Virus genome (UHGV): UHGV-0021275
Strand: one strand, 5' to 3'
DNA from: a virus
DNA length: 58,445 nt
Below are positions 33,684 through 34,832 of this stretch, in pieces. The notes below the pieces were generated by a model. The model did no database searches. It was not told the origin of the DNA and worked only from the letters and a program-made list of their open reading frames with translations. Position numbers and translations under genes: made by a program. Numbering within the stretch: position 1 is the stretch's first letter; each line of letters begins with the position of its first letter.

Positions 33684-33790
33684 TTTGAGCAGTCGAGCCT
33701 ACTTTATAGGCAAAATGGAGAACTGTTGAGCAGTTGAGCAAGTTTGAGCACTTGAGCACGGGTTGAGCAAAAACTTGCTCAGGGTCTGGC
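33684..33790. repeat. Cluster of TTGAGCA / TGCTCA iteron-like direct and inverted repeats
   Basis: gttgagcag ttgagcaag tttgagcac ttgagcacgg gttgagcaaaaacttgctcagg, with further TGAGCA/TGCTCA copies out to ~34400 (e.g. ccgtgctcatag, ttgctcaagccgtgctcaagg). Confidence 0.5.
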
Positions 33791-33964
33791 GTGTTTAAGT
33801 TATTGAAAGTAGCGGAGTTTGTGCAGCATTTTATACTTTGTAGCAAGCGAGCAAGATTTCAGGGGGACGAAGGAAAATTAGGACACATATACACGACAAA
33901 AAATCGGAAAGGGTCGCGTACACGTACCCATTACCCGTAAAACTTGCTCATTTGCTACAAAGCT

Positions 33965-34035
33965 GCACATATTAAAAATTCTTCCGTAAATTTATATATA
34001 TTATTTATATAAATATATTATATAAAACAATAACT
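33965..34035. promoter_or_regulatory. AT-rich block (candidate DNA-unwinding element / promoter region)
   Basis: aaattcttccgtaaatttatatatattatttatataaatatattatataaaacaataac: nearly pure A/T over ~60 bp, next to the iteron cluster, in non-coding DNA. Confidence 0.45.
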
Positions 34036-34204
34036 TGCAGCTTTACAGTTCTCGGCTGCAAAATTTCGCTAGTGGAAAATCCATGCTCAAACCGTGCTCA
34101 TAGTGAAATACGCTTGGTATAACGCTTTGATTCTAAAGAGATTTAACAATTGACATTTCTTTACAAACAAACTTCTTGCTAATCAAGTACTTAGACTTGC
34201 GCAC

Positions 34205-34832
34205 AGACTGCGCATTGCGCAGTTAAAATTTTGTGCACAGCATATCAATAACTTAGCTCAGCATACCTAACTACGGAACAGGCACGACCACCGGGGCAGA
34301 CTGCGCACACAGTGCGCATTGCGCAGATTTGTAAATCCCGGTAAGCCGTTTTTGCTCAAGCCGTGCTCAAGGCCGAAAAACGTTTATTAGTTGAGCTATT
34401 GTCAGGAAGTGTAAGCATCAGGATTTAACAAATGGACCGGCGGGACCAGTGATGAAAATAAAATTGTTTTGGAATCAGCTGGTTATGTAGCAACGCTCGT
34501 TGGCCCCGGTCCGGCAGTAGCGCGGCGGCACAGGTCGCGCAGGCCCGAACGTAAAGGGGGTGGGGGGCTTTGGACGCGCCACTTCGACACCCCCCTCGCT
34601 CTACTCTATAGTATTGCTCGCGACACTTTTCGTTTTTGTAGAATTTTCATGCTGCGCATAATGCGTAGTGCGCATGGCTATTTGTTTCAGGCCTGATTAT
34701 CGCAGGACGTAACTACTGCGCAATGCGCAGATACCCACTTGTTAGATCATAACGCGGTAGAACTGGCGCGCATTGCGCGGCACCGTGGTCGATAAATAGT
34801 CCCAACCAGCAATTAACGCGCGATGCGCGCCA
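34205..34832. promoter_or_regulatory. Cluster of five GCGCAWTGCGC palindromes (candidate operators)
   Basis: ctgcgcattgcgcag (~34208), gtgcgcattgcgcag (~34312), ctgcgcaatgcgcag (~34716), gcgcgcattgcgcgg (~34767), gcgcgatgcgcgc (~34817). Approximate positions. Confidence 0.5.

Follow-up and report, generated by a model that had tools for sequence, protein, structure and literature searches.

The E. coli phage-plasmid N15 has its replication origin inside repA; its prophage is linear with a protelomerase, it encodes SopA/SopB, and its partition sites are dispersed over the genome. In P4, the C-terminal winged-helix domain of the alpha protein is said to bind octamer iterons (TGTTCACC), as reportedly described by Ziegelin and Lanka and by Flensburg and Calendar. 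These octamers reportedly occur, both directly repeated and inverted, in two cis regions, ori and crr, which are 4.5 kb apart. In SaPIs, the C-terminal domain of Rep recognizes 5- to 6-nt iterons around an AT-rich center; origin melting and self-loading are both carried out by the helicase (PMC9371898).

Here, we analyzed a stretch of 58,445 nucleotides of the virus genome UHGV-0021275 (the window) and propose that positions 33685-34370 are probably an iteron-type vegetative and/or plasmid replication origin of a ~58-kb E. coli phage-plasmid. A preliminary description of this DNA had placed a candidate replication origin there, and this placement is consistent with GC skew and is supported by the non-coding status of the region and by comparative results, from which we infer origin activity.

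Genome context and relatives

The window is a ~58-kb phage-like genome. Its minus-strand genes, from ~7.7 to 33.3 kb, encode HigB/HigA, a DUF927 primase-helicase of 1039 aa, an SNF2 helicase, a family-A polymerase, exonucleases, ParB, RusA, and ArdA. The structural genes, on the plus strand, begin at ~35.6 kb and run over the window ends; they include TerS/TerL as well as SU10-like portal and adaptor proteins. Two features of the minus strand are the following.

7690-8341, minus strand: stretch listed with the AgrB match and the HigB/HigA toxin-antitoxin pair
9262-12381, minus strand: 1039-aa AEP primase and MCM-like helicase (DUF927) with a C-terminal winged-helix-like domain, the proposed initiator

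The AgrB match (Rfam RF02891; 48.1 bits; 7595-7680, minus strand) lies at the junction of the convergent arms, and the HigB/HigA pair adjoins it. Among relatives, RelE/HigA occupies the corresponding place in plasmid pSTEC648_2, and ParE is found in the early arm of others. No integrase, ParA, or protelomerase was found among the reading frames scanned; given this and the presence of toxin-antitoxin modules and ParB, the element looks like a plasmid prophage.

The searched phage collection contained no close relative (TerL identity of at most 34%). However, a circular, non-mobilizable E. coli plasmid, pSTEC648_2 (CP061838.1; 60.5 kb), is in parts ~80% identical to the window, and assemblies of E. 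coli isolates contain related whole-length contigs of 56 to 62 kb. Read sets of isolates carrying relatives include SRR25052920, SRR8140211, and SRR26188682. DNA similarity searches with the repeat region gave no match in phages (near and distant), plasmids (distant), or complete E. coli genomes, and pSTEC648_2 was recovered by DNA search only with a 20-kb query. Searches for related loci in viral and genome collections with a 431-aa open reading frame (ORF) and TerL were likewise without a match. The relatives used below were obtained through protein searches followed by look-up of their contigs. The element belongs to a family of 55- to 66-kb podovirus-like phage-plasmids of E. coli and other enterobacteria, with more than 100 TerL relatives in metagenomes. 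Literature searches turned up neither this family nor TTGAGCA iterons.

Between the candidate origin region and the late operon lies a variable cargo slot (34861-35478 of the window, minus strand; 7991-9867 of related locus L004; 3670-5482 of L009). In the window it holds a 205-aa ORF of unknown function, which has 193 aa in L002. Two unrelated genes of ~300 aa are present in L004 to L006, and an IS1595 transposase is present in L009. Apart from this transposase, the cargo-slot proteins had no Pfam match.

A cluster of short repeats surrounds an unstable AT block

The region between the two divergent gene arms contains the following features.

33483-33511, minus strand: putative leftward early promoter (TTGACA, 17 nt, TTTAAT), read by eye
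33685-33698, plus strand: outlying repeat pair TTGAGCAGTCGAGC with 8-bp spacing (repeat family D6)
33726-33769, plus strand: array of five direct TTGAGCA copies, 8, 10, 8, and 11 bp apart from start to start
33775-33781, minus strand: inverted copy TTGCTCA, which makes a small palindrome together with the last of the direct copies
33836-33859, plus strand: left arm of an inverted pair, GTAGCA and CGAGCA with 8-bp spacing, 83% complementary to 33934-33962 (I2)
33860-33938, no strand: variable spacer in which repeat orientation flips from plus to minus; 53% invariant columns, differing between subgroups
33939-33962, minus strand: right arm of the inverted pair, TGCTCA and TGCTAC with 8-bp spacing, abutting the AT block; 96% invariant
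33969-34039, no strand: AT block, 63/71 A/T (89%), candidate DNA unwinding element, holding a 41-nt A/T run
34084-34100, minus strand: right repeat pair R1, TGCTCAAACCGTGCTCA, with 11-bp spacing; 94% invariant
34120-34132 (minus strand), 34181-34193 (plus strand), and 34243-34255 (plus strand): three IHF-consensus matches, the only three in the window
34198-34222 and 34302-34326, no strand: two 25-bp units with three TGCGCA hexamers each (D1, D4), 84% invariant, flanking an invariant IHF-like site and assigned to the second, dispersed palindrome family described below
34353-34369, minus strand: right repeat pair R2, TGCTCAAGCCGTGCTCA, with 11-bp spacing; 100% invariant, 96% complementary to 33751-33774 (I3)
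34556-34640, plus strand: conserved element (G-run, TGGAC, TATAGTATT) bounding the repeat region on the right

The window contains 17 copies of TTGAGCA, and nine of them fall within 33685-34370. Six are direct (33685, 33726, 33734, 33744, 33752, and 33763) and three are inverted (34084, 34353, and 34364). The cluster seen in the preliminary description was thus confirmed, although its count (at least five direct copies within 60 bp) is corrected to six direct copies in the region. Additional inverted hexamers were found at 33776, 33945, and 34095, so that, as had been noted, inverted TGCTCA copies (33776, 33945, 34084, 34095, 34353, and 34364) continue to ~34400. Altogether, 12 of the 54 TGAGCA/TGCTCA hexamers of the window are inside the 716 bp from 33685 to 34400 (binomial P of 2.4e-12), and inclusion of the GTAGCA and CGAGCA variants brings the number of copies of the 6- to 7-nt word in 33685-34370 to 16.

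The copies are ordered. Nine copies point rightward over 33686-33853, with a single inverted exception (33776), and all six from 33945 onward point leftward. Several form pairs, spaced either by 8 bp (33727/33735, 33745/33753, 33840/33848, and 33945/33953) or by 11 bp (33753/33764, 34084/34095, and 34353/34364). A 17-bp unit, TGAGCACGGNTTGAGCA, occurs three times in the window, always in the repeat region. Twelve copies lie to the left of the AT block and four to the right; the pair immediately to its left (33945, 33953) is oriented like the right-hand pairs, and the switch falls in the spacer at 33860-33938. That the inverted pair forms a structured RNA was considered and rejected because the 79-bp spacer is not conserved, and Rfam and tRNA scans of the repeat region detected no RNA gene.

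The AT block is extremely unstable. It contains a pure A/T run of 41 nt (33987-34027), the next longest run in the window being 14 nt, and it is the sole place where a 40-nt window holds at least 36 A/T. The AT-only block of ~60 bp in the preliminary description is therefore real, but A/T is uninterrupted over ~41 nt rather than 60. The least stable 60-mer of the window coincides with this block, at -55.6 kcal/mol compared to a mean of -85.9 (standard deviation of 4.9) and to -68.2 for the runner-up. An AT block is found at the same place in all relatives. No DnaA box was found within 1 kb of it, and a DnaA-dependent origin was rejected on these grounds; for a helicase that loads itself, a missing DnaA box is neutral.

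The region was described beforehand as non-coding, and this holds in the relatives: in five related contigs, gene callers made no call from the first early gene to the next gene, 1.5 to 2.3 kb away. A degraded coding sequence, which had been named as a finding that would speak against an origin, was rejected, since the relatives have no called ORF there and conservation is restricted to the repeat words and does not follow a reading frame.

The repeats lie between putative divergent promoters

Alignments A1 and A3 show no variation in the -10 region of the putative leftward promoter or in the TCAA of its -35, and the promoter is kept in all relatives. The consensus promoter scan did not list it, its -10 having no A at position 2. 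The first early gene has its ATG at 33302, and the leader that runs to it from this promoter is 93% invariant in five relatives. A perfect hairpin with a 12-bp stem (33360-33371/33383-33394) was observed in this leader (33303-33482, minus strand), which may be a regulatory 5' UTR. An ORF overlapping the leader (33322-33522) is probably spurious, and its start lies upstream of the promoter. A plus-strand "terminator" at 33360-33405 lacks its T run in relatives and was therefore not accepted as a conserved one; the same stretch is more likely the hairpin of the minus-strand leader.

The sole strong rightward promoter-like site (TCGACA, 17 nt, TATAGT; 34584-34612) lies inside the conserved element at 34556-34640. 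This element consists of GGGGG, one base, T(C/T)TGGAC, ~30 nt, and TATAGTATT followed by a T-rich tract, and it is retained down to relatives with 55 to 57% TerL identity. In the group of pSTEC648_2, TATAGT is replaced by TACCGT or TACTGT, and 34556-34640 is therefore possibly no plain sigma-70 promoter. The repeats overlap neither putative promoter, being ~170 bp from the leftward and more than 210 bp from the rightward one.

Cumulative GC skew, the check proposed for the origin, reached its minimum at 33427, with a flat floor to ~34400 at the candidate origin, and its maximum at 6318. This is consistent with an origin at ~34 kb and a terminus roughly opposite on the circle, although it is not independent support, because the extremes coincide with the switch of coding strand.

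Repeat words are selectively conserved and change in concert

In five close relatives, 94% of the repeat positions are invariant, versus 66% of the remaining positions of the same region. By part, invariance among these relatives was 96% in both arms of the inverted pair, 94% in R1, and 100% in R2, versus 42 to 58% in the spacers. The left part of the cluster (33685-33785) has 73% invariant columns between flanks of 42 to 49%. Within the region, conservation is lowest just upstream of the leftward promoter (49% invariant; hypervariable in alignment A3). The IHF-like site at 34243 is invariant in six of six aligned loci.

In the pSTEC648_2 group (TerL identity of 85%), the layout is the same, with GTAGCA or GAGTAA as the word at homologous positions. 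This change affects the left array, the inverted pair, and both right pairs, and the sites are again nearly invariant within the group. In L009 (TerL identity of 55%), GTAGCA occurs 12 times in 571 bp, in the order seen in the window: direct copies, an 8-bp tandem pair, a spacer of ~100 bp, an inverted pair, the AT block, and further leftward copies. Pairs equivalent to the left arm at 33836-33859 are present in L001 and L009. L008 has TAGCAG/CTGCTA and a second word, GGAAACA. The layout of repeats and AT block thus persists to 55% TerL identity and also in Pseudomonas phage Rollin, whose primase-helicase is 27% identical and which carries, at the same position in its genome, palindromes containing GGTAGCA, repeats of TTGCATA, and an AT block.

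The repeats are unique. They are also selectively conserved, and many copies change in concert; these last two properties together mark sites to which a sequence-specific protein binds and with which it co-evolves. This comparison with relatives is the main evidence suggesting an origin.

The candidate initiator is a primase-helicase

The structure model of the primase-helicase was confident (mean pLDDT of 82.8). In Foldseek, the top matches of the whole protein were SCCmec Cch (E value of 1e-18) and the SaPIbov1 replication initiator (8.5e-17), to which its helicase and C-terminal domain correspond. An AEP PrimPol matched the N terminus (4.5e-8), and the RepB' primase and then MCM helicases ranked after it; sequence searches agreed with this assignment. 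The C-terminal domain alone gave no significant match (best E value of 0.33). Structurally, the protein is thus predicted to be a self-loading helicase of the SaPI-Rep/Cch type fused to an AEP primase. Pfam and PHROG scans found no further initiator-type protein in the element. By analogy with SaPI Rep, the repeats would be bound by the C-terminal (aa 828-1039) rather than the N-terminal domain. The gene had been described as lying nearby; at 9262-12381, it is in fact 21 kb away.

Identity between the two repeat-word groups is 54% for the primase-helicase, 51% for its C-terminal domain, 44% for a 254-aa helix-turn-helix (HTH) protein, and 75% for ParB, whose HTH is almost unchanged. Covariation fails to single out the binder, because the primase-helicase, its C-terminal domain, and the HTH protein have all diverged. 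An attempt to follow covariation of the recognition helix in distant primase-helicases, P0011 and P0015 paired with L008 and L009, was abandoned since the proteins and loci came from different samples.

In pSTEC648_2 (7059-7643 of its locus, L007; compare 9262-9900 of the window), the annotation gives the C-terminal domain an ORF of its own (194 aa), overlapping the end of an 865-aa DUF927 protein. Possible causes are a frameshift, a sequencing error, or a true split of the proposed origin-binding domain. A further sequence, TGAGTAggttaTGAGCA (12375-12391, minus strand), is a one-mismatch version of the 11-bp-spaced iteron pair and overlaps the start codon of the primase-helicase, which could point to autoregulation. 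As a signal, this TGAGTA/TGAGCA pair was discarded: 0.34 occurrences are expected by chance, and pSTEC648_2 has no clear counterpart.

A second palindrome family is interleaved with the repeats

The 11-nt palindrome GCGCAWTGCGC, the core of CTGCGCAtTGCGCAG, was found in nine dispersed copies (5001, 34210, 34314, 34718, 34768, 36728, 37077, 40524, and 54843) versus 0.11 expected. Four of them are located next to the iterons and the candidate late promoter, and the other five elsewhere in the genome. They are possible sites of the ParB (20206-21141, minus strand), which is of the Spo0J/Noc type, without a ParA found in the element, and encoded 12.5 kb from the repeats; a global regulator is also possible as their binder. 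The palindromes, the IHF-like sites, and the ParA-less ParB together suggest a maintenance hub more complex than an origin alone.

The stretch 33.7-34.85 kb might be a combined hub, in which ParB would load at the palindromes CTGCGCAWTGCGCAG, spread or slide, and silence late transcription in the manner of KorB on RK2, so that replication initiation, segregation of the plasmid prophage, and control of lysogeny would be coupled in one nucleoprotein complex. We regard this extended scheme as rather doubtful. Nevertheless, the feature that most deserves experiment is the way in which iterons, IHF-like sites, and palindromes of the ParB type are interleaved.

Proposed mechanism and alternative explanations

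For the proposed origin, we infer binding of the repeats by the primase-helicase, melting of the AT block, and initiation of replication in this region. The ~16 iterons of 6 to 7 bp, with pairs at 8 or 11 bp, would be the sites at which the element's own primase-helicase binds through its winged-helix-like C-terminal domain. The helicase would oligomerize on the iterons, and IHF-type bending at 34120-34255 would help to melt the adjacent 41-nt A/T run. Self-loading of the helicase, independent of DnaA and DnaC, would follow, with priming by the AEP domain and extension by the family-A polymerase of the element. Replication would be bidirectional, toward a terminus near 6 kb. Against an origin at this place stands the position of the initiator gene, 21 kb away, unlike in SaPI, P4, and N15, where the origin is beside or inside the rep gene.

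The repeats could also be an operator or enhancer through which the 254-aa HTH protein (21364-22128) or a lysogeny repressor acts on the divergent early and late promoters, with the AT block as a bend or UP-like element. The flanking putative promoters fit this, several HTH proteins are encoded, the 254-aa one having diverged between the word groups, and IHF-like sites are frequent in regulatory loops. We nonetheless consider an operator unlikely: neither promoter is overlapped, the DNA directly upstream of the leftward one is the least conserved, and 16 copies in tandem 8- and 11-bp pairs beside a 41-nt A/T run would be an unusual operator layout. Improbable to a somewhat greater degree is a maintenance site other than an origin, that is, a centromere for ParB or an iteron bank for copy number or incompatibility like P1 incA. 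Such a site would suit the plasmid-prophage behavior of the element, its kinship with circular pSTEC648_2 and with whole-length contigs of E. coli isolates, and its HigB/HigA and ParB; moreover, P1 parS has short hexamer and heptamer boxes around an IHF site. However, ParB proteins of the Spo0J/Noc type bind palindromes, whereas the TGAGCA copies are mostly direct repeats, and the ParB HTH is near-identical in pSTEC648_2 despite the different repeat word. GCGCAWTGCGC is the better candidate for the ParB site, no ParA was found, and parB is distant from the repeats. An iteron bank, for its part, would still imply an origin with the same iterons close by.

The region also resembles a packaging site for the small terminase, such as P1 pac, in which hexamer repeats flank the cut site together with IHF, or lambda cosB. 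Short repeats lie on both sides of a distinctive center, with IHF-like sites, upstream of the late operon, and the equivalent region, or DNA near it, is interrupted in two related records, by the contig end in L010 and by a gap in the assembly of Rollin. Breaks of this kind are, however, expected as artifacts in repeat- and AT-rich DNA, and the contig ends of the other relatives fall at positions that differ. In addition, terS (37782-38327) lies 3.4 kb downstream with at least two genes between, and a more usual place for a pac or cos site would be the conserved 640 bp of non-coding DNA directly upstream of terS, which makes packaging here very improbable. This latter stretch (37141-37782) contains a 20-nt inverted repeat (37569-37588/37725-37744) and a 13-nt direct repeat and is a candidate pac/cos or late-promoter region.

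With origin and initiator located, a replication origin at 33685-34370 would give a handle for minimal replicons. It would permit incompatibility tests between the TGAGCA and GTAGCA/GAGTAA specificity groups, and it would show how a tailed phage of Gram-negative bacteria uses a SaPI-Rep-like self-loading helicase with sites far from its gene. The mechanism would be no surprise to replication specialists: the origin would be ordinary in kind, and it is the phage-plasmid family that is undescribed.

Comparison with known origins

The origins of P1 (oriR), F, R6K, RK2, and pPS10 similarly have an initiator-binding array by an AT-rich unwinding element, an IHF site, and extra iterons possibly used for copy control. 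In contrast, their iterons are 17 to 22 bp long and phased at ~22 bp, with an adjacent Rep_3/WH1-WH2 initiator and DnaA boxes. A Rep_3-type iteron origin was rejected here, since the units are of 6 to 7 bp at 8- to 11-bp spacing, there is no DnaA box within 1 kb, and Pfam and PHROG scans found no Rep_3-like protein in the element. An origin of the lambda type, with four ~19-bp iterons and an AT-rich tract inside the gene of the initiator (O protein), was rejected as well, the present region being non-coding and the element scans having found no O-like protein. N15 is likewise an E. coli phage-plasmid with a large multifunctional primase-helicase (RepA), but the candidate origin described here is intergenic, and no protelomerase or ParA was found.

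P4 is comparable by analogy, without membership being claimed, as an enterobacterial element able to live as a plasmid with one multifunctional primase-helicase. Its iteron word is different, and the copies described here are confined to 0.7 kb, in contrast to the 4.5 kb between ori and crr. With the SaPI origin, the region shares many short iterons (5 to 7 nt) on both sides of an AT-rich stretch and the absence of DnaA boxes. The candidate initiator, like that of SaPI, is an MCM-like helicase whose C-terminal domain is predicted to bind DNA, and its fusion to a primase recalls SaPI5 PriRep; the fold match reaches significance with the whole protein and extends to the C-terminal domain, which alone gave a best E value of 0.33. 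Unlike the SaPI origin, which is immediately downstream of rep, the region is 21 kb distant from the gene. Orientations are opposite on the two sides of the region, with plus-oriented pairs on the left and minus-oriented pairs on the right, but the copies flanking the AT block share one orientation and the switch occurs 30 to 110 bp to the left, in the 79-bp spacer, so that the geometry does not appear to be that of SaPI. Further differences are the 6- to 7-bp units in 8- and 11-bp pairs with a five-copy direct array, the host element, a tailed phage-plasmid of Gram-negative bacteria, and the interleaved second palindrome family and IHF-like sites. Since the origin is not beside the rep gene and the orientation around the AT block differs, the region would not be a strict member of the SaPI class; by analogy, it would work most like a SaPI/PICI or P4-type origin.
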